A stretch of DNA of 51,203 nt from Alphaproteobacteria bacterium (lineage in GTDB: Bacteria > Pseudomonadota > Alphaproteobacteria > JAAXGF01), in assembly GCA_046582565.1 (NCBI GenBank), contig JAYGED010000178.1:1-51203 (forward strand), read 5' to 3'. The notes beneath the pieces are model-generated. The model ran no database searches. It was not told where the DNA came from and saw only the letters and a list, made by a program, of their open reading frames with translations. The position numbers and the translations under genes were made by a program. Shown piece by piece: positions 6,533 to 39,506 of the stretch; the first letter of the stretch is position 1; the number at the start of each line of letters is the position of its first letter.

Positions 6533-6916
6533 CTACAGGCTCAAGCCGATGAACCAGGCGATGAAGGTCAGCACCACCGACGCACAAAGCATCACCCAGC
6601 CCGAGCGGTAGACGTCTTCGATCTCGAGCATCCAGCCGGCATCCCAAAACAGGTGCCGCACCCCGTTGCATAGGTGATAGAACAGGCATACCGAAAAGCC
6701 GAACAACACCAATTGGCCGAACCAGGAGCCGTAGAATTCCCGCGTCGCCTCATAGGGCCCGGGGCCCGAGGCGGCGGCGACCAGCCACCAGGTGATGAAC
6801 AGGGTTCCCACCGCCAGACCGACGCCGGTGCCCCGGTGAATGATCGACAGAACGGATGTGAGCTGAGGTTTGTAGACCTGCAAGTGAGGCGACATGGGTC
6901 GCTTATGTTGGGTCAT
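6533..6916 (-). CDS. sdhC: Succinate dehydrogenase cytochrome b556 subunit
   Basis: RPMSPHLQVY, SIIHRGTG, HLCNGVRHLFWD. Confidence 0.96.
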   Translation of the reverse strand: MTQHKRPMSPHLQVYKPQLTSVLSIIHRGTGVGLAVGTLFITWWLVAAASGPGPYEATREFYGSWFGQLVLFGFSVCLFYHLCNGVRHLFWDAGWMLEIEDVYRSGWVMLCASVVLTFIAWFIGLSL

Positions 6917-7002
6917 TGATGTTCTCCCAACCAAAATTATTGCGCCCCGGGCGGCGCCTTTGAAACGATATTAACCCCTTGTGACAGCAAGTCAATCACG
7001 GC

Positions 7003-7475
7003 TTACACGCGGTGACGCCGGTGCCAGTCGCTCAAGGATTCCTCGGGGTATTCATCAAACTGTTCGTGGTCAGGGCCGGCTTCGGCTGCGACCCAGCCGG
7101 CCTTCGATGCGAGCATGATATGGACGGTTTCGGGCGGGGCGGGTAGCTCCGAATCGATAGCCGATGCGAAGGGATGGACCAGCTCGGGCCAACGCGGGTC
7201 ATAGACCCAGAGCGCCGAGCCGCAAGCCTTGCAAAATGCCGCTGCGCCTGCCGCATGCCGTCTTCGTTGGTTTCCGAGGCGACCCGATAGACCGAGAGAT
7301 TTTCCTCGCCCTCGATTCTGAGGCTGCCAGAATCGGCGCCGAGATTGATGGCGTAGCCGCCGCCGCCCGCGGTCTTGCGGCAGACCGAACAATAGCAGCG
7401 CATGTAGGGATAGGGCGCAGAGGAGTCGACGGAGAAACGCACCGCGCCGCAGTGACATGATCCTTCGAGTTTCAT
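7003..7475 (-). pseudogene. GFA-family (glutathione-dependent formaldehyde-activating, CENP-V-like) protein, frameshifted
   Basis: GSCHCGAV...CYCSVC in one frame and FCKACGSALW...WHRR in another. One missing base at CATTTT/GC (~7233-7236) would rejoin them as RHFCKAC. Confidence 0.8.
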
Positions 7476-7525
7476 TCAAGGTCCCTCATGGCAGATGACT
7501 CGCCAGGGCGCCACTCAAACGGCGG
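7441..7525. repeat. Duplicated HMT-end/GFA-start junction, copy A (copy B at 8111-8195)
   Basis: Ungapped manual alignment gives 70/85 identical. Confidence 0.92.
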
Positions 7526-7528
7526 CAA

Positions 7529-8026
7529 TCAAGGATTACGCCCAGCAATCTGCTTCTCGTAGAGCACATCGTAGGGGCGGTAGTCGCACTTCTCGTAGAC
7601 CGCGCGGGCGTTCGCGTTGCCCGCCATGACCCAGAGCATGACCCGGCTGAAGCCGCGACCGGCGAGATAGTCCTCTGCCGCATCCAGCAGGGCAGCACCC
7701 ACGCCCCGGCCGCGATGGTCGGCGGCGACGAAAACATTGGAGACATATCCATAAGGCCGGAATTTCTCTTGCAGATTTTTATCCTCGTCATCACCGTCAT
7801 GGCAGGAGACGAAACCGATGGCCTTGCCGGATAACACGGCCATCAACAAGGCTCCGTTATGGGCCGCCATCTTGCGCTCAATTTCGGCGAGAGCGCTCTC
7901 GGCCGCCTCGGCGCCGAGCCTAAGCTTAGGGTCCAACGCGCGCTCATAGTCCTGTATCGCGACGAGGAAACCCAGCAGCGTCGCGCGGTCGTCGGCACGG
8001 GCCGGCCTGATTTCGATGTCTCTCAT
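7529..8026 (-). CDS. GNAT-family N-acetyltransferase
   Basis: IRPA start, VFV...RGRGVG acetyl-CoA motif, N..AR..YEK. Confidence 0.88.
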   Translation of the reverse strand: MRDIEIRPARADDRATLLGFLVAIQDYERALDPKLRLGAEAAESALAEIERKMAAHNGALLMAVLSGKAIGFVSCHDGDDEDKNLQEKFRPYGYVSNVFVAADHRGRGVGAALLDAAEDYLAGRGFSRVMLWVMAGNANARAVYEKCDYRPYDVLYEKQIAGRNP

Positions 8027-8145
8027 CGCCGCCTCGGCATCAGCGCCGGGTGGTTGCCGCCGTCGGCGTTTTTATAAGGATAATCGGCGCTGGGGTGGTC
8101 CTTGGTGGCCACTGCGCCGTAGTGGCAGGAGCCTTCAAGCTTCAT
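8023..8145 (-). other. 40-aa chimeric mini-ORF (GFA N-terminus fused to hydratase C-terminus)
   Basis: MKLEGSCHYGAV matches the GFA start and ATKDHPSADYPYKNADGGNHPALMPRRR matches the mch end. 8041-8110 vs 9181-9250 are 62/70 identical. Its stop overlaps the GNAT ATG (ATGA). Confidence 0.8.
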
Positions 8146-8155
8146 TCTAGCGCCC

Positions 8156-9121
8156 TCATGGCAGATGACTCGGCAGGGCGTCACGCAAGGGGCGGATATA
8201 GTCGATCTCGACGCCGCAGCAGCCGCCGATGATCTGCACGCCGCCGGCGACGCAGCCCTGGGCCCAGGCGACGAATTCGTCGGGTGTGATCGGCGTTGCC
8301 ACCGCGTCGTCGCGGTGGGCGGAGACGTAATCGTTGCGCTCGGCCTCGGGATAGACACAGACCGGGCCGTCCCAGGCTCCCTTCACGATATCGAGTGCCG
8401 CGTCGGTGGCGTCGAGCGGTGAATGAAACACGCTGACCACCGACCCACCGAGGGCGGTGATCTCGCCGAAGCCGTCGGCGAAGCTCTGCTCGGAGGAATA
8501 ACCGAGGCGGGCGACGCCGTCATCAAGGCGGCATTTGAAGCCGTCCCACACCGGCAGGCCGGACGATAGACAGGCCTCGACGACCCATTGCCGGTGATTA
8601 TTGCCGCCGGTGGATTCGGAAATCAGGAAATCGACCCCCGCTTCGGCCAGAATATCGGCCTGTTCGCGCAAGTTGGCCTTGGCCTGGGCCTCGGAGGTTT
8701 CCGAGCGGCGGCGCGCCATGGACCATCGGTCCATGCCCGGTTCCTGGCCGACTTTGATGCCAAAATTGGAGACCGAGCCGGCGATCAGCACCGGCCGGTC
8801 GCGGGCCGCCTTGTCGCGCGCGTCCTGGGCCAGCATGACGGCGCGCAGGTTGAGCTCGGCGGTGCGTTCGCCAAGGCCGAGGGGCTCGAGATTATGACGC
8901 GCCGAGGCGTAGGAGTTGGTGGTGATGATATCGACCCCGGCGGCAATATAGTTCTCATGCATATGGCGCACGGTGAAGGGATGGGTGTCCAGCGCCAGGG
9001 CCGCCCAGGCGAATTCGGCCATCGGCGCCCCCATGGACTGAAGTTGGGTGCCGATGGCGCCGTCGAGGATGATGACCTCGCGCGCCGCCAGACGCTCCTC
9101 AAGGTGGCTGTAGTCGCTCAT
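8156..9121 (-). CDS. Homocysteine S-methyltransferase family protein
   Basis: ILDGAIGT, H..YI.AG.DIITTNSY, AGVD, IIGGCCG. Confidence 0.88.
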   Translation of the reverse strand: MSDYSHLEERLAAREVIILDGAIGTQLQSMGAPMAEFAWAALALDTHPFTVRHMHENYIAAGVDIITTNSYASARHNLEPLGLGERTAELNLRAVMLAQDARDKAARDRPVLIAGSVSNFGIKVGQEPGMDRWSMARRRSETSEAQAKANLREQADILAEAGVDFLISESTGGNNHRQWVVEACLSSGLPVWDGFKCRLDDGVARLGYSSEQSFADGFGEITALGGSVVSVFHSPLDATDAALDIVKGAWDGPVCVYPEAERNDYVSAHRDDAVATPITPDEFVAWAQGCVAGGVQIIGGCCGVEIDYIRPLRDALPSHLP

Positions 9122-10212
9122 TTTCTGTCCTCTCCAGTTGGCCGACGCGGCATCAGTGCCGTGTAATCGAGATCGAGCACCACCGCCGGGTGGTCGGCGC
9201 CGTCGGCGTTTTTATAGGGATAATCGGCGCAAGCGTGGTCCTTGGTGGCGACCGTGCGCAGGCGCAGGGCGCCGATGTCGTCGCGTCCCGGCAGAGGCAT
9301 GGTCTCCAGCACCTCGCTCCAGGCATAGACGGTGTCGCCGGCGAACAGCGGCGCGACGTGGCGGCCGCCGTTTATGGCGATGATGCGGAGGGCGTTGGCC
9401 AGGCCGTTGAAGCTCAGCGAGCGGGCGATGCTGATGACATGGCCGCCATAGACCACGCGGCGGCCGAAGTGGCTTGCCTGGGCGGCGTGGGCGTCGAAAT
9501 GCACCCGCGCGGTGTTCTGATACATCCGCGTCGCCATCATATGCTCGGCCGCCTCGACGGTGGTCCCGTCGATATGATCGATGCGCTCACCGGCTGTGTA
9601 GTCCTCCCACAGGTAGGGCGATCCGGCGGCGGCCAGGTCATAGCCCGCAAGATCGAGTTCACCGGGCAGGACAATACGCTCGAGCGCAACCTTGGCGGGC
9701 AGCTCGGGCACCGACGGCTCGGGTGCCGGCGATGCCGGGTCGCGCTTGGCCACCATCACCCAGCGGATAAACTCGACCAGCACCTCGCCGTGCTGGTTGC
9801 GCCCGGTGGTGCGCACGTAGACCGTGCCGGTCTTGCCGTTGGAGTTCTGTTTGACGCCGATGACCCGGCTGGTGGCGCTGACCGTGTCGCCGGGGTAGGT
9901 CGGCGCCTTGAACAGGCAATCGGCGTAGCCCAGATTAGCGATGGCGTTGAGCGAAATATTGGGCACCGACTTGCCGAACACCACATGGAAGGTCAGCAGG
10001 CTGTCGATCGGCGAGCGCTCGAGCCCGGCGGCGCGGGCGAACTCATCGGACGAGATGAAGGGAAAGCGCGAACCGTAAATGGCGTTATACAGCGCCTGGT
10101 CGCCGAGGGTTATGGTGCGCGGCGTGGCATGGATGATTTCCTGGTCGAGGTGAAAATCCTCGAAGAAGTTACCGCCCCCGGATTTATTAGACATAGGAGA
10201 TTTATTCGACAT
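9118..10212 (-). CDS. mch: Double-MaoC hydratase, mesaconyl-CoA hydratase-like (ethylmalonyl-CoA pathway)
   Basis: GNFFEDF, HATPRT, SLNAIANLGY, YQNTARVHF; lies directly downstream of a CitE-type lyase. Alternative start at 10194. Confidence 0.78.
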   Translation of the reverse strand: MSNKSPMSNKSGGGNFFEDFHLDQEIIHATPRTITLGDQALYNAIYGSRFPFISSDEFARAAGLERSPIDSLLTFHVVFGKSVPNISLNAIANLGYADCLFKAPTYPGDTVSATSRVIGVKQNSNGKTGTVYVRTTGRNQHGEVLVEFIRWVMVAKRDPASPAPEPSVPELPAKVALERIVLPGELDLAGYDLAAAGSPYLWEDYTAGERIDHIDGTTVEAAEHMMATRMYQNTARVHFDAHAAQASHFGRRVVYGGHVISIARSLSFNGLANALRIIAINGGRHVAPLFAGDTVYAWSEVLETMPLPGRDDIGALRLRTVATKDHACADYPYKNADGADHPAVVLDLDYTALMPRRPTGEDRK

Positions 10213-11080
10213 GGCGCGCTGCTATGGCGTCGGCCAGGGCAACCAGACGATGGGCGGCCTCGACATGGAGGTTTTCGATCAGCTTGCCGTCGATCACCAC
10301 GACGCCCTTGCCTTCTTTGGTGGCCTCGCCATGGGCGACGATGATCCGTTTCGACCATTCCACCTCGTCGGCCGAAGGGGCGAACAGCTCATTGGCCACG
10401 GCGATGGTCTTGGGGTGGATCAGGGTCTTGCCGTCGAAGCCGAGCTCCAGCCCCTGGCGGCAGGAATTGGCGAACCCTTCGTCGTCGGCGAGGTCGAGAT
10501 GAACCCCGTCGACGATGGCGACGCCGTGGGCCCGCGCCGCCAGCAGACAGAGGGACAATCCGGTGAGCAGGGGCAGCCGGTCGCGGGTGTGGGCGGCGTG
10601 GAGGTCCTTGGCGAGGTCCGAGGTGCCCATCACCAGACAGGCGACGCGGCCATGGGCGCCGGCCACCTCCTCGGCGTGCAGCATGCCGATGGGGGTCTCC
10701 ATCATGCACCAGATGGTCAGCTCGTCGGGCGCGCCGTTGGCTTCCAGCACGGCGACCGCCTGCTCGACCATATCGGCGCTGCCGACCTTGGGCAGCAGCA
10801 CCGCATGGGCCCCGCTGGCCGCCACCGCCACCAGATCGTCGTTGCCCCAGGAGGACGCCAGCCCGTTGACCCGCACGACCAGTTCGCGCGACCCGTAGCC
10901 GCCCTTGGCGAGGGTTGCGAGCACCTGATCCCGCGCCATCTGTTTGGCGTCGGGGGCGACCGCGTCCTCGAGATCGAGGATCAGCGCATCGGCGGCCAGG
11001 CTGCGGCCCTTCTCAAGCGCCCGGGCGTTGGAGCCCGGCATATAAAGCACGCTGCGGCGAGGTCGTATGGTTGAGGGCAT
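10202..11080 (-). CDS. HpcH/CitE-family CoA-ester lyase (malyl-CoA lyase/thioesterase-like)
   Basis: RPRRSVLYMPG, DLEDAV, GTSDL, GFDGKTLIHP, GKLIENLH. Confidence 0.88.
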   Translation of the reverse strand: MPSTIRPRRSVLYMPGSNARALEKGRSLAADALILDLEDAVAPDAKQMARDQVLATLAKGGYGSRELVVRVNGLASSWGNDDLVAVAASGAHAVLLPKVGSADMVEQAVAVLEANGAPDELTIWCMMETPIGMLHAEEVAGAHGRVACLVMGTSDLAKDLHAAHTRDRLPLLTGLSLCLLAARAHGVAIVDGVHLDLADDEGFANSCRQGLELGFDGKTLIHPKTIAVANELFAPSADEVEWSKRIIVAHGEATKEGKGVVVIDGKLIENLHVEAAHRLVALADAIAARHVE

Positions 11081-11106
11081 TGATAAATCCTATGGCTATC
11101 GCTTGG

Positions 11107-27509: not shown

Positions 27510-30107
27510 CTAAGCCGCTTCCGCCGCCACAGCCTTGCCGTTGATTTCCAGGCCATCAGCCCCGGCGCTGACCGTAACTTCGGCGCCGTCATCGATGACG
27601 CCTTCGAGGATCATGGCGGCCAGGTTGTTCTGCAGATGGCGCTGGATGATGCGCTTCAGGGGGCGCGCCCCGTAGACCGGGTCGTAGCCGGTGTTGGCCA
27701 GCCAGTCGCGGGCGGCCTCGTCGAGGCTGAGCGTGATGCCGCGATCGGCCAACAGGCCAAGCAGATTGCCGAGCTGGATTTCGACGATGCCCTTCATATG
27801 CTCGCGGCCCAGGCGGTCGAACAGGATGATCTCGTCGAGGCGGTTGAGGAATTCCGGGCGGAAGGCATCGCGCACCGCCGCCATCACCTTGTCGCGGACC
27901 GGGCCCATAAGCGAGCCCTTGGGCAGCTCGGCGAGAAACTCGGAGCCCAGGTTCGAGGTCAGCACGATCAGGGTGTTGCGGAAATCCACCGTGCGGCCGT
28001 GGCCGTCGGTCAGGCGGCCGTCGTCGAGCACTTGCAGGAGCAGGTTAAAAACATCCGAGTGGGCCTTCTCGACCTCGTCAAACAGGATCACCTGGTAGGG
28101 CCGGCGCCGCACCGCCTCGGTCAGAGCGCCGCCTTCTTCATAGCCCACATAGCCCGGCGGGGCGCCGATCAGCCGCGCCACGGAATGCTTCTCCATATAT
28201 TCCGACATATCGATGCGCAGCATGGCGTGGTCATCGTCGAACAGGAAGGCGGCCAGGGTCTTGGCGAGTTCGGTCTTGCCGACCCCGGTGGGCCCGAGGA
28301 AGAGGAACGAGCCGAGCGGCCGGTTGGGGTCCTGCAACCCGGCGCGATGGCGGCGTACGGCGTTGGACACGGCGACAATGGCCTCGTCCTGGCCGACCAC
28401 CCTCTCGCGTAAGGAGTCTTCCATATGGAGCAGCCGCTCGCGTTGGCCTTCGAGCATGCGTTCCACCGGCACCCCGGTCCAGCGCGAGACGATGGCGGCG
28501 ATATCCTCGCCGGTGACTTCCTCGCGGGCCTTGGAATCCTGGCTGCCTTCCGCGGCCCCGGCAAGCTTGTCTTCAAGATCGGGGATGATGCTGTAGGTGA
28601 TTTCCCCGGCGCGGGCAAGGTCGCCCTGGCGCTGGGCGGCGTCGAGTTCGTTACGCGCCGCATCGAGCTGTTCAGTGAGCTTTTGCGATCCGGCGACACG
28701 GTCGCGCTCAAGCTGCCAGTGCGCGCCTTCCTCGTCGGCCCGGACCTCGAGCTCGGTGAGTTCGCTCTCAAGCTTCTCGAGGCGGTCCTTGGAGGCCGCG
28801 TCGGTCTCCGTCTTCAGGGCCTCGCGCTCAATCTTGAGCTGGATCACCCGGCGGTCGAGTTCGTCCAGGGCCTCGGGCTTGGAATCGACTTCCATGCGCT
28901 TGCGGCTCGCCGCTTCGTCCATCAGGTCGATGGCCTTATCGGGCAGGAAGCGGTCGGTGATATAGCGGTGCGACAGGGTGGCCGCCGAGACGATGGCTGA
29001 ATCGGTGATCCGCACCCCGTGGTGCAGCTCGTATTTCTCTTTCAGGCCGCGCAGGATCGAGATCGCGTCCTCGACCGTGGGCTCGAGGATCATGATCGGC
29101 TGGAAGCGCCGCGCCAGAGCGGCGTCCTTCTCGATTTGCTTGCGGTATTCATCGAGGGTCGTCGCCCCGATGCAGTGCAGATCACCGCGCGCCAGGGCCG
29201 GTTTGAGCAGGTTTGATGCGTCCATGGCACCTTCAGCAGCACCCGCGCCGATCAGGGTATGCAGCTCGTCGATGAACATCAGCACCTCGCCGGCGGCGTC
29301 GGTGACCTCATTGAGCACCGCCTTGAGCCGTTCCTCGAATTCGCCGCGGAACTTGGCGCCGGCGACCAGGGCGCCGAGATCGAGCGACACCAAGCGTTTC
29401 TGCTTGAGGCTCTCGGGCACATCGCCGTTGACGATGCGCAGGGCCAGCCCTTCGGCGAGCGGCGTCTTGCCGACGCCGGGTTCGCCGATCAGCACCGGGT
29501 TGTTCTTGGTGCGCCGCGACAGCACCTGAATGACCCGGCGGATTTCCTCGTCCCGGCCGATCACCGGATCGAGCCGGCCGTCGCGGGCCAGGGCGGTAAG
29601 GTCGCGGGTGTATTTCTTGAGCGCTTCGTACTGGTTCTCGGCGGTCGCTGTATCGGCGCTGCGGCCTTTGCGCAGATCATTGATCGCTGCGTTCAAGGTC
29701 TCGGGCTTGAGCCCGGCGTCGCCGAGGATACGCGCGGTCTCAGTGCCGGCGCCGAGGGTCAGGGCGAGCAGCAGGCGCTCGACGGTAACGAAGCCGTCTC
29801 CGGCCTTGTTGGCAATTTCCACGGCGCTCTCGAACAAGCGTGCCGTCTCGGGCGCCAGATAGACCTGCCCGGCGCCGGGGCCTTCGACCTTGGGCTGTTT
29901 TTCAAGCTCGGCAATGACCGCGACGATGGCGTCCTCGGGGCGGGCGCCGGCGGCGGACATCAGGTTGGCGGCCAGGCCCTCATTGTCGTCGAGCAGGATT
30001 TTCAGCACATGCTCGGGCATGAAGCGCTGATGGCCGCTGCCTATGGCGAGTGCTTGGGCGGATTGAATCACGCCCTGGGATCGTTCGGTAAATTTCTCAA
30101 TATTCAT
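27510..30107 (-). CDS. clpB: Chaperone ClpB
   Basis: Two AAA+ modules ([16 protein letters not shown]) and middle coiled-coil domain; 865 aa. Confidence 0.97.
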
Positions 30108-32919: not shown

Positions 32920-34085
32920 TGACTGGTCTCCCCGTCGTTCTGAAACAGCTGGCGAATGAGGCGTTCGGCCTCTTCCTGGTCACCGCCGGTCTCGGCCAGG
33001 ATGTCTCTTCGTAGGGCGTCGATGCGCTGGCGCAGGGCATCGGCATCGGGCGCCTGGGCGCGGCCTGCACGATCCTCATGATAGGCGGCGAGGGTTTCGT
33101 CGACGATGCGCCAGGCCTCTTCGGCGGCGGCTTCGCGATGGGCGATCCCGGCGCGGGCGACGCCTTCCAGATCGTCGTTATCATAGAGGAAAGCGTCGTC
33201 GAGGTCTTCGATGGCTGGATCCGCATCGCCCGGCACCGCCAGATCGATGACGAATATCGGCTTTCTCCGCCGGGCCTTGAGGGCCGCCTCCAGGGCATCG
33301 GCTGTCAGCGTATAGCTGCCCAACCCGGCGCAGGTCACGACAACATCGGCGCCGGCGAGGGCATGATCGAGGGTCTCGAATTCGATCACATTGGCGTCGA
33401 GCGCGCGCGCCAGAGGGGCGACCCGCCGCGCTGTGCGATGGGTGACGGCGAGCCGCCCGAGACCGCCGTCAGTCAGGCGTCGGGCGACCATCTCGCCCAT
33501 CTCGCCAAGGCCGATGAGTAGGCCCGAGCAGGACCCCAGGTCGCCGTGGATACCCCGCGTCACATCGAGCGCGGCGGCGGCGATGGAGACCGGCCGCTCG
33601 CCGATTTTGGTGGTTGAGCGAACCCGTTTCGCAGCGCTGTAGGCGGCGTCGAGCAGACGATCGAAGTCACTGCCGATCATGCCTGCCGCCTGGGCGACGC
33701 GATGGGCGGTCTTGACCTGGCCGAGTACGTTGGGCTCGCCGATTACCAGACTGTCGAGCGAGGCAGCGATAGCGAACAGGTGGCGCGCCGCCTCGGCGCC
33801 TTGCAGGGTGTAGAAACCGGCCGCCAGTTCGCTCGGATCGATGCTGGCATTGTCGGCGAGGATAGTGGTGATTGCCGTTGCGGCGGCGGCGGCGTCCTGA
33901 TGGATTGTCTGAATTTCAACCCGGTCGCAGGTCGATAGCAAGAGAGCTTGCGTCACGCCGGCGTGCCTGAGGCGGTTGAACAGCGCGCCGACGTCTTCTT
34001 CCTCGACCATCAAATTTTCGCGCAGGGAAAGCGGCGCCGATTTGTGATTGGCGCCGACCACAACCAATGCCGGCCAATGCTCCAT
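32916..34085 (-). CDS. hemA: Glutamyl-tRNA reductase
   Basis: G.NHKSAP..LRE, STCDRVE, SLDS..IGE...LGQVK, G.GEMG, DLAVP.D. Confidence 0.9.
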
Positions 34086-38194: not shown

Positions 38195-39415
38195 TCATTC
38201 AGCATCCAGACCATAGGCGCTGTGCAGGGCGCGCAAGGCAAGTTCGAGATAGTCTTCGGCGATCAGGATGCTGATCTTGATTTCGGAAGTCGAAATGACC
38301 TGGATATTGATGCCCTTGTCGGCCAGGGTCTGGAACATCATAGTCGCCACCCCGGCGTGACTGCGCATGCCGACGCCGATCACCGAGACCTTGACGACAG
38401 TGCCGTCTGACGTCAGCGACTTATAATCGAAACCCCGCCCGCCGTCTTCGAGCAGCGCCACCGTGCGCGCGAGATCGGCGGTGGTGACCGTGAAGGTCAG
38501 GTCGGTCAGGGATCCGTCGGCGGAGACATTCTGCACAATCATGTCGACATTGACATTGGCGTCGGCCAGGGGCCCGAAGATGGCGGCGGCGACGCCGGGT
38601 TTATCCTGCACGCCGACCAGGGTGATCTTGGCCTCGTCGCGGCTATAGGCGATGCCGCTTACCATTTGCTCTTCCACGATTTCATCCTCATCTACGACCA
38701 GGGTTCCGGGGGAATGGGTGAAACTCGACAGGACCTGGAGGCGAACCCGATGGCGCATGGCCAGCGCTACGGCGCGGGTTTGCAGGACCTTGGCACCCTG
38801 GGACGCCATTTCGAGCATTTCTTCATAGGTGATCAAATCGAGCTTGTGGGCCGCCGAGACGATGCGCGGATCGGCGGTATAGACGCCATCGACATCGGTG
38901 CAGATATCACAGCGTTCCGCGCCCAATGCCGCGGCCAGTGCGACAGCGGAGGTGTCCGATCCGCCGCGCCCCAGGGTGGTTATCCGGCCCTCGGGGCTGA
39001 GGCCCTGATAGCCGGTGATCACGGCGACCTGGCCGGCCTCGAGGCGGTTCTCGATCTCCGCGGTGTCGATGGACAGGATCCGCGCAGCGCCATGGGTGCC
39101 GTCGGTGCTCAGGGGAAGCTGCCAGCCGTGCCAGGAGCGCGCCGAGACGCCGATATTCTGCAAGGCCAGGGCGAGCAACCCGCTGGTCACCTGTTCGCCG
39201 GTGGCGACCACGGCGTCATATTCGCGGGCATCATGCAACGGCGCCGTCTCATTGACCCAGCCGACCAGTCGGTCGGTCACCCCGGCCATGGCCGAGACCA
39301 CCACGGCGACCTGATTGCCGTCGTCGACCGCCGCCTTAACGCGCAGCGCAACGGCTTTGATGCGCTCAATATCGCCAACCGACGTGCCGCCGTATTTTTG
39401 AACCAGCCGGGCCAT
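38195..39415 (-). CDS. lysC: Aspartate kinase
   Basis: VQKYGGTSV, GRGGSD, DVDGVYTADPR, two ACT domains. Confidence 0.97.
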   Translation of the reverse strand: MARLVQKYGGTSVGDIERIKAVALRVKAAVDDGNQVAVVVSAMAGVTDRLVGWVNETAPLHDAREYDAVVATGEQVTSGLLALALQNIGVSARSWHGWQLPLSTDGTHGAARILSIDTAEIENRLEAGQVAVITGYQGLSPEGRITTLGRGGSDTSAVALAAALGAERCDICTDVDGVYTADPRIVSAAHKLDLITYEEMLEMASQGAKVLQTRAVALAMRHRVRLQVLSSFTHSPGTLVVDEDEIVEEQMVSGIAYSRDEAKITLVGVQDKPGVAAAIFGPLADANVNVDMIVQNVSADGSLTDLTFTVTTADLARTVALLEDGGRGFDYKSLTSDGTVVKVSVIGVGMRSHAGVATMMFQTLADKGINIQVISTSEIKISILIAEDYLELALRALHSAYGLDAE

Positions 39416-39506
39416 ATGTTAGATTCTATCCACTAGTGCATGCTGTTTAGGGCGCGTATACATACTGGGGTGACGATCCGGTTTCAACCCCGACTTATGG
39501 GTAATT

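Follow-up and report, generated by a model that had tools for sequence, protein, structure and literature searches.

The window, i.e. the whole 51,203-nt stretch that was analysed (contig JAYGED010000178.1 of an uncultured marine alphaproteobacterium with a source genome of 3.64 Mb), carries a composite gene slot between mch and sdhC. In minus-strand order, the locus comprises mcl, mch, a homocysteine S-methyltransferase family gene (HMT), GFA codons 1-12 in frame with an mch tail, a GNAT acetyltransferase gene, the last 13 HMT codons, GFA, and sdhC. It contains two head-to-tail units with equal borders and different cargo, which can be written as [X1-HMT-Y1]::[X2-GNAT-Y2], where X denotes copies of the mch tail and Y copies of the junction between the HMT end and the GFA start. 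We tentatively interpret the composite as a fusion of two versions of one operon slot, with an illegitimate in-frame joint on the left and a homologous exchange on the right. The core of this interpretation can be stated with considerable confidence, i.e. a GNAT segment from an mch-GNAT arrangement was very probably joined illegitimately into the GFA start of an mch-HMT-GFA locus. The features of the locus are, with coordinates of the window:

10202..11080, minus strand: mcl, malyl-CoA-lyase-like gene (HpcH/HpaI; Pfam PF03328, E 7e-45)
9118..10212, minus strand: mch, mesaconyl-CoA-hydratase-like gene, conserved left border of the slot (Pfam PF19315 and PF01575, MC_hydratase/MaoC)
9177..9257, minus strand: X1, resident copy of the mch tail, repeated at 8037-8117 (86% of 81 nt; self-BLAST E 3.7e-19)
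8156..9121, minus strand: HMT, cargo 1 (Pfam PF02574, S-methyl_trans, profile 1-283 of 283, E 3e-42)
8110..8195, minus strand: Y1, functional HMT end (13 codons and stop), 10-nt spacer and displaced GFA start (12 codons), from the repeat search
8023..8145, minus strand: chimeric open reading frame (ORF) of 40 codons, GFA codons 1-12 in frame with the mch tail, from translation
8028..8117, minus strand: X2, mch-tail remnant in two blocks, 8037-8117 and 8028-8051 (repeat offsets 1140 and 1113)
7529..8026, minus strand: GNAT acetyltransferase, cargo 2, the inserted gene (Pfam PF00583, Acetyltransf_1, E 3e-21)
7440..7525, minus strand: Y2, decayed HMT-end remnant (7486-7527, directly after the GNAT stop codon), spacer and resident GFA start, from the repeat search
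7003..7475, minus strand: GFA-family gene, right-hand resident (Pfam PF04828 on the first 66 residues only; 7032-7475, N-terminal part)
6533..6934, minus strand: sdhC, conserved right border of the slot (tblastn mapping in relatives)

The repeat search aligned 7440-7525 with 8110-8195 (86 nt, 83% identity) and 8037-8117 with 9177-9257 (81 nt, 86%), and the match counts of 70/85 and 62/70 that a first-pass annotation of this DNA had given for the repeats were reproduced on the printed sequences. A third block, 8028-8051 versus 9141-9164 (24 nt, 83%), has an offset that is 27 nt shorter than that of 8037-8117, and therefore the mch-tail remnant lacks 27 nt of the resident tail, in frame. In a self-BLAST of the whole genome, the E values were 6.7e-16 for the 86-nt pair and 3.7e-19 for the 81-nt pair. 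With 7000-9300 as query, no further copies of either repeat or of GNAT were found in the genome, and all other matches were HMT paralogues.

Four junctions of the locus can be read at base level. The resident mch tail has a 7-codon extension (PTGEDRK) that runs through the HMT leader, and its stop codon overlaps the HMT start codon in an ATGA, as seen in an alignment with eight relatives and the metagenome locus L055 (see below). The functional HMT end reads IRPLRDALPSHLP followed by a stop codon, and the 10-nt spacer behind it holds a Shine-Dalgarno-like GAGGG motif that precedes the displaced GFA start, in which Cys9 is changed to Tyr. This GFA start is joined to the mch tail at 8110/8109, where the GFA parent reads ...GCGGTG/CGT and the mch parent ...ACGGTC/GCC; by eye, CGGT is common to both. 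The resulting 40-codon ORF has the translation MKLEGSCHYGAV followed by ATKDHPSADYPYKNADGGNHPALMPRRR, ends with LMPRRR and a stop codon, overlaps the GNAT start in an ATGA, and has no Pfam match. The stretch behind the GNAT stop codon is the HMT-end remnant, CRRLSGALASHLP and a stop codon.

A GFA origin of the SAxYPY segment within the chimeric ORF was considered and rejected, because its nucleotides match the mch tail and not GFA. SAPYPY is present in GFA and SADYPY in the mch tail (8073-8090, 7403-7420), and after the fusion both are in the same register at residues 19-24. The similarity looks like chance, and it may have helped pairing near the joint.

The contiguity of the two joints rests on two assemblies and on shares of sequence words. 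L054, a contig from another metagenome assembly, equals window positions 10460-7461 in all 150-nt bins apart from one mismatch and covers both joints; the matching stretch comprises 3.1 kb. Furthermore, 20 sequencing runs from 11 studies contain a share of 0.74 or more of the words sampled from 6900-9400, which indicates presence and is no junction-level proof. Eight of the 20 runs were flagged as possible sources, and the other 12 contain 0.74-0.96 of the words.

Downstream of 7350, L054 and the window disagree, as L054 turns to an L055-like GFA-sdhCD sequence and keeps to it for at least 3.2 kb. The point of change falls within 34 nt that are identical in the three sequences (L054 3066-3099, window 7384-7351). 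Past the switch, L054 has no mismatches to L055 in the displayed stretch, and the identity is 98.8% over a 1724-nt match that includes the window-like start. Because the identity of the window to L055 is similar on the two sides (81.2% and 83.5%) and that of L054 is not (80% and 98.8%), L054 is the mosaic. Either true recombination between lineages or contig chimerism accounts for it, and in both cases the two joints of the composite are unaffected.

It is extremely improbable that the composite is an assembly artefact, i.e. a contig in which two strains, each with one of the simple alleles, were merged. The source is admittedly a metagenome assembly of 317 contigs with 2.9% contamination, and the switch between L054 and the window within 34 identical nucleotides indicates that chimeras or real recombinants do arise at this locus. 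However, no common k-mer at the Y1::X2 joint could have misled an assembler, each copy is unique sequence given the 14-17% difference and the 27-nt deletion, both joints agree in two assemblies, and the words are also abundant in the 12 runs that were not flagged as possible sources. No second sdh operon, which would expose the window as a chimera, was found in the genome. Tetranucleotide usage does not vary much across the window (r 0.975-0.985), a measure that cannot separate close relatives.

For comparison, we analysed the mch-sdhC slot in relatives. The locus was obtained in nine of the 12 other species genomes of the family, with the following contents:

G002, G009, G011 and G012: sdhC directly after mch
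G006: mch-GFA, with GFA-sdhC on the next contig
G005: mcl-mch-GNAT-GFA, then about 650 nt, then sdhC
G001: mch-GNAT
G010: GNAT-GNAT-HMT-GFA, with the contig ending before mch
G007: mcl start fragment, GFA, 220-aa ORF, sdhC

The slot is thus variable among relatives, as had been proposed in the first-pass annotation: four of the nine loci are empty and five (G001, G005, G006, G007, G010) contain cargo in differing combinations. A search with mch among metagenome contigs found 566 relatives, of which 80 loci were kept. Two of the 80 were informative, namely L054 with the arrangement of the window and L055 with mcl-mch-HMT-GFA-sdhC-sdhD, whereas the other 78 have no HMT, GNAT or GFA 3′ of mch (one has a 32% GNAT match upstream). 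Of 178 candidate stretches from a GNAT search of genome contigs, one gave a weak match (47% over 47 residues). The two simple arrangements predicted in the annotation both exist, mch-HMT-GFA-sdhC in L055 and mch-GNAT-GFA-sdhC in G005. The HMT protein of the window is 85% identical to that of L055 and 79% to that of G010; its GNAT protein is 50-55% identical to the GNATs encoded 3′ of mch in G005 and G001 and 5′ of HMT in G010.

L055 is collinear with window positions 13751-8073 and 7475-5756 at 81-83.5% identity, and it has a single junction of HMT end and GFA start. Compared with L055, which represents the empty site, 670 nt are inserted in the window, and 86 nt of this junction are duplicated at the flanks. 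An alternative to the fusion of two slot versions is a de novo long target duplication, in which a fragment consisting of mch tail and GNAT, derived from the mch-GNAT locus of a relative, was joined illegitimately at both ends into the GFA start, with repair copying 86 nt of the target. The Y copies would then have been identical at birth, and the three scars would be equal in age. We regard this alternative as doubtful, albeit worth careful weighing. Both Y copies align to the single L055 junction and share a 14-nt spacer insertion as well as derived bases, as would be expected from it, but the insert would have to end by chance no more than about 3 nt from the stop codon of GNAT, and a mechanism for an 86-nt duplication is not established.

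To estimate when the junctions arose, we compared the scars with the divergence of the relatives. The mch-HMT junction is common to the window and L055, with the tails LMPRRPTGEDRK and LMPRHAPGEGKK, respectively, each followed by a stop codon and of equal length up to the HMT start codon. The mch′-GNAT junction of the remnant, with LMPRRR, a stop codon and an overlapping start codon, is of the G005 type, and other relatives have a similar form. From the window to L055 or G005, the synonymous divergence (dS) amounts to 0.47-0.59. The scars have 12-20 changes in 158 nt, whereas at least 34 would be expected if they were as old as the splits from L055 and G005 (P = 0.008). Because the scars are younger than these splits, both junction types predate the duplication, and therefore two existing arrangements were joined.

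With segments as short as 36-84 nt, distances and counts of derived states were used instead of tree placement. Both Y copies share the 14-nt spacer insertion and derived bases, which L055 and G010 lack, and X2 shares window-specific bases with X1. As the remnants carry the lineage-specific marks of the resident copies, the partners were very close kin and not members of well-separated lineages. The proposed fusion of two alleles of the locus is thus supported as far as the joining of two pre-existing arrangements is concerned, while the origin of the alleles from different lineages, also part of that proposal, is not.

These ages also bear on a tandem duplication with reciprocal loss, the type of event treated in the SNAP hypothesis. 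An ancestral mch-GNAT-HMT-GFA locus would have been doubled from the mch tail to the GFA start, unit 1 would have lost GNAT and unit 2 HMT, and the gene order would have been swapped. A framework of duplication and subsequent remodelling has been published (Brandis and Hughes, PMC7055797, PMC9016547), the GNAT-before-HMT order exists in G010 (GNAT-GNAT-HMT-GFA), the Y1::X2 joint looks exactly like a tandem-duplication joint, an HMT-end remnant is kept in the second unit, and by eye about 17 nt 5′ of HMT are alike in the window and G010. Nevertheless, three events are required, the first unit lacks a GNAT remnant between mch and HMT, and the mch-HMT junction shared with L055 at a dS of 0.47-0.59 is far older than the duplication. 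This junction of L055 is likely homologous by descent and likely predates the duplication. Altogether, we consider a tandem duplication unlikely.

The converse is also conceivable, i.e. an old composite whose copies were kept similar by gene conversion and from which L055 and G005 were derived by recombination between Y1 and Y2 or X1 and X2. A deletion between the Y repeats would result in exactly mch-HMT-GFA, and a deletion between the X repeats would result in mch-GNAT-HMT remnant-GFA. Three observations make this origin very unlikely: the 14-nt spacer insertion of both Y copies is missing in L055 and G010, G005 has no HMT remnant between GNAT and GFA, and identical runs in the repeats extend to about 19 nt at most, a short length for conversion.

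Under the fusion of two slot versions, the events may have been the following. One parent would have been mch-HMT-GFA, as is still seen in L055, and the other would have had GNAT directly after mch, as in G005 and G001, with an HMT-end leftover between GNAT and GFA. The DNA of the GNAT version might have come from a very close relative or from the sister chromosome. On the right side, it would have paired homologously in the HMT-end/GFA-start region or further into GFA. On the left side, resident GFA codon 12 would have been joined illegitimately to the incoming mch some 45 codons ahead of its end, in frame and with the CGGT microhomology. The outcome would be [mch tail-HMT-HMT end/GFA start]::[mch tail′-GNAT-HMT end′/GFA start], with both cargo genes kept and GFA intact, and it would resemble a 670-nt insertion with an 86-nt target duplication. 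The displaced GFA start, together with the Shine-Dalgarno motif, would now open the 40-codon ORF that stops on the GNAT start codon, and judged from this arrangement it is plausible that the ORF keeps GNAT translationally coupled. The prior for an in-frame joint together with an in-frame deletion is 1/9.

The uneven decay of the scars counts for the fusion of two alleles. The HMT-end remnant has seven changes in 38 nt, all of them derived on the remnant with L055 and G010 as outgroups. In contrast, the mch-tail remnant has, over 84 nt, two derived changes that are clear and five that are ambiguous (Fisher P = 0.004 to 0.13 versus the HMT remnant), a lower number than a de novo duplication would lead one to expect. 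The seven changes in the GFA-start pair, six synonymous and one non-synonymous, include three on the remnant, one on the resident copy, and three at sites that are variable among all relatives. These counts weakly suggest that the HMT scar may be the oldest and that the GFA and mch scars may be younger, which fits the prediction for a fusion of mch-HMT-GFA with mch-GNAT-HMT remnant-GFA.

It had been noted in the first-pass annotation that six of seven differences between the GFA starts are synonymous, and the inference was drawn that both copies evolved under protein selection. The count was right for the 12 GFA codons (6.0 synonymous and 1.0 non-synonymous differences; 0, 1 and 6 differences at codon positions 1, 2 and 3), with a P value of 0.007 for the six of seven at third positions, and it is at odds with copies that arose de novo and then decayed. 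The inference applies to these 12 codons and does not extend to the larger sample. The differences by codon position are 3, 3 and 1 in the HMT end and 3, 1 and 3 in the mch tail, plus 1, 0 and 1 in its last five codons. The pooled share of third positions is 11/23 (P = 0.11), and without the GFA codons it is 5/16. The changes in the HMT end, all on the remnant, are scattered over the codon positions as under neutral decay, in agreement with a de novo duplication.

Several results weigh against the fusion of two slot versions. No donor allele with the order mch-GNAT-HMT remnant-GFA and without the HMT unit turned up in the 13 family genomes, in 41 relatives, or among the 80 (of 566) metagenome loci. 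The Y copies have the 14-nt insertion and derived bases in common, and decay following a de novo duplication would account for all differences between them. The synonymous bias is based on 12 codons that were chosen post hoc, the pooled codon-position test is not significant, and only three of the seven GFA-start changes are placed confidently on the remnant, three being at sites that are variable in all relatives. No tract boundary is visible downstream of Y2. Lastly, four other loci in the same genome have the same kind of scar without a sign of an allelic donor, which fits a general insertion process better.

These four loci come from a genome-wide scan for repeats; a scan for fragments of flanking gene termini had been suggested together with the allele-fusion proposal. 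None of the four scars speaks for a donor allele. The scan resulted in 72 local, diverged direct-repeat pairs, of which 30 were checked for their ORF context and 11 in detail. In four further loci among those inspected, a gene terminus is duplicated around inserted DNA:

C17, 17444-17539 and 18823-18921: pyrB 5′ region plus 15 codons, 99 nt, 86% identity; gene for a transporter of the major facilitator superfamily (MFS) in between
C209, 59136-59205 and 62266-62335: first 22 codons of a hydantoinase A gene, 70 nt, 89% identity; cupin gene and 736-aa DMFase-like gene in between
C46, 7128-7229 and 7758-7859: last 43 codons of a histone-deacetylase-family gene, 102 nt, 91% identity; about 500 nt without a clear ORF in between
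C8, 3063-3131 and 4087-4156: last ~20 codons of a 512-aa gene, 70 nt, 84% identity; split methyltransferase gene in between

The MFS gene of C17 is present in G005 and G010 on contigs other than that of pyrB. The differences in the C209 repeat are scattered over the codon positions. The insert in C8 is a frameshifted SAM-methyltransferase gene on the opposite strand, and the copies in C46 and C8 recur 0.6-1 kb downstream. The duplication of gene starts or ends of 70-102 nt around inserted DNA, and in particular the pyrB case with an inserted gene that relatives keep elsewhere, favours a de novo duplication, a class that has been described for restriction-modification (RM) genes with repeats often across start or stop codons (PMC2853133, in the passages on these insertions).

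Insertion with long target duplication is the closest described kind of event, and the locus in the window is a further case, without RM genes. According to passages of the survey by Furuta et al. 2010 (PMC2853133), which cites Nobusato et al. 2000 on long target duplication as its reference 37, such insertions have an empty site in a relative, direct repeats of more than 30 bp that align to a single target, and no mobility genes. The same passages state that the repeats often lie across start or stop codons and that the target genes stay intact; the mechanism is not established, and double-strand breaks by restriction enzymes were suggested. At the mch-sdhC slot, L055 provides the empty site with nothing between HMT and GFA, both 86-nt copies align to the HMT-end/GFA-start junction of L055 and G010, and the repeats are unique in the genome and not dispersed, with no mobile element among the scanned ORFs. 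As in the passages of the survey, the insert is smaller than 20 kb, the repeats span a start and a stop codon, and the mechanism is not established. In contrast to the survey, the cargo is not an RM gene but GNAT plus fragments; the presence of RM genes was, however, a criterion of the survey and not of the mechanism. In addition, the repeats are old, with 83% identity versus 93-100% in the tables of that paper. The insert also starts with the tail of mch, the border gene of the target locus itself, a situation not mentioned in the passages of the paper considered here; this tail points to an allelic donor.

By analogy, homology-facilitated illegitimate recombination (HFIR) would be the nearest mechanistic model and the SNAP hypothesis the nearest rival. 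HFIR in natural transformation, known from work of de Vries and Wackernagel in 2002 and of Prudhomme et al. in 2002, reportedly replaces or deletes recipient DNA in most laboratory cases. The locus resembles HFIR in its joint with 4-nt microhomology, a possible homology anchor and the lack of a recombinase gene, and HFIR may have acted here. Unlike in HFIR, nothing was lost and 86 nt were duplicated, and the homologous crossover is our reconstruction. With the SNAP hypothesis, as outlined in parts of PMC7055797 and PMC9016547, the locus shares head-to-tail units and a novel joint, and complementary content could turn GNAT-HMT into HMT-GNAT. Traces of the lost cargo in each unit would belong to that scheme, whereas here an HMT end is retained in unit 2, no trace of GNAT is present in unit 1, and the mch-HMT junction is older than the duplication.

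Two other systems have partial similarity. In the capsule locus of Neisseria meningitidis, regions D and D′ contain an intact and a truncated galE (part of PMC5349592), and acquired DNA is likewise located between an intact gene and its truncated duplicate. The size there is 24 kb compared to 0.67 kb here, and in the window both unit borders are duplicated, in tandem within one operon. Integron cassettes likewise are small, promoterless genes on the same strand that are collected in a fixed slot. In contrast to integrons, there is no match to an integrase family, and the junctions are the ends of neighbouring genes. The inverted-repeat list for 6900-10300 has no hairpin or palindrome at the GNAT borders, with no dedicated attC model having been run. 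A limited literature search, which did not cover subscription journals, found no description of a two-unit composite of the mch-HMT/mch-GNAT sort.

The first-pass annotation had stated that no integrase or transposase gene is nearby, and this was confirmed with Pfam for nine locus proteins and 15 ORFs of at least 150 aa within 1-24 kb, a scan that left out smaller ORFs and the region beyond 24 kb. The surroundings of the locus are housekeeping genes (sdh, ribF, ileS, lspA).

Catalogues of insertions with long target duplication date back to 2000 and list mostly RM genes; as far as the passages of PMC2853133 go, there is no accepted mechanism. The locus in the window is unusually legible among them: its four junctions are readable, both parental arrangements survive in relatives, and the insert includes part of the gene next to the target locus. 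The last point suggests that offset recombination of two versions of the same locus can give rise to insertions of this type, in which case conserved operons would acquire genes in their variable slots with no integrase at work. A broader generalization is a rather speculative one, i.e. that slots grow by enzyme-free duplication of junctions, that gene ends serve as portable homology arms, and that offset allelic recombination explains long target duplication. Were it true, a gene would move together with the tail of its former upstream neighbour and insert into the first few codons of a resident gene. The start codon displaced in this way would be reused for a short relay ORF that keeps the newcomer translated, and the window would represent one of at least five such events in one 3.6-Mb genome. 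As the donor at the mch-sdhC slot would have been an allele of the same locus, offset recombination between alleles, rather than repair of staggered breaks, would then be behind long target duplication. In sober terms, the locus is a well-preserved and fairly ordinary recombination scar, the origin of which is mostly explained. For annotation, it is a warning that the 40-codon ORF and the HMT-like stretch are scars and not genes.

The transcriptional context was analysed by a consensus scan of the minus strand. A promoter-like site is located ahead of mcl at 11164-11135, and mcl is likely the first gene of the transcription unit. The first terminator-like site after mcl is a hairpin at 6957-6942; further promoter-like sites are located at 6995-6936. 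Because a promoter-like site precedes mcl and no terminator-like site follows until 6957-6942, the genes from mcl to GFA probably form one transcription unit, as far as can be predicted from sequence motifs. Within GFA, a 1-nt deletion near 7234 (window 7225-7245) was found, with CATTT-TGCAAGG in contrast to CATTTCTGCAAGG in L054 and L055, which results in two overlapping frames. GFA is intact in L054, L055, G005, and G010, and in this assembly it is either a pseudogene or affected by an assembly error.

A second HMT paralogue is encoded elsewhere in the genome (G000:C123:705-1654, 73% amino-acid identity), and the HMT of the slot is an extra copy. A 205-nt HMT 3′ fragment with 81% identity is located on a short contig (G000:C212:1201-1405). 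HMT-like matches of 74-75% nucleotide identity at other loci of G005, G001, and G010 may be orthologues of the paralogue.

The locus of G007 is another rearranged state of the mch-sdhC slot. It has a fragment of 41 codons from the mcl start (L022 1323-1445, G007:C72; 76% identity) directly 5′ of GFA, and mch is absent. A gene pair that by look resembles a ribbon-helix-helix antitoxin and a MazF-like toxin is situated just upstream of the mcl fragment.

Additional repeats were observed in the genome-wide scan. A third, partial copy of the pyrB 5′ region with 79% identity is present on C252 (16197-16331). C261 has a 194-nt repeat (G000:C261:37849-38042 and 39272-39465, 91% identity) that comprises the 3′ end of a 381-aa ORF, a putative porin, and a terminator-like hairpin; its second copy follows a truncated ORF of 111 aa. 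Hairpin-rich intergenic repeats of 60-130 nt and 87-92% identity are dispersed in the genome (G000:C243:8356-8471, 10968-11083, 29017-29099, and 33933-34015), and the same kind was found on C170 (6449-6575, 9788-9914) and C196 (1317-1375, 4714-4772). These dispersed repeats of C243, C170, and C196 are elements of the repetitive extragenic palindromic (REP) or miniature inverted-repeat transposable element (MITE) type and not scars of gene termini.

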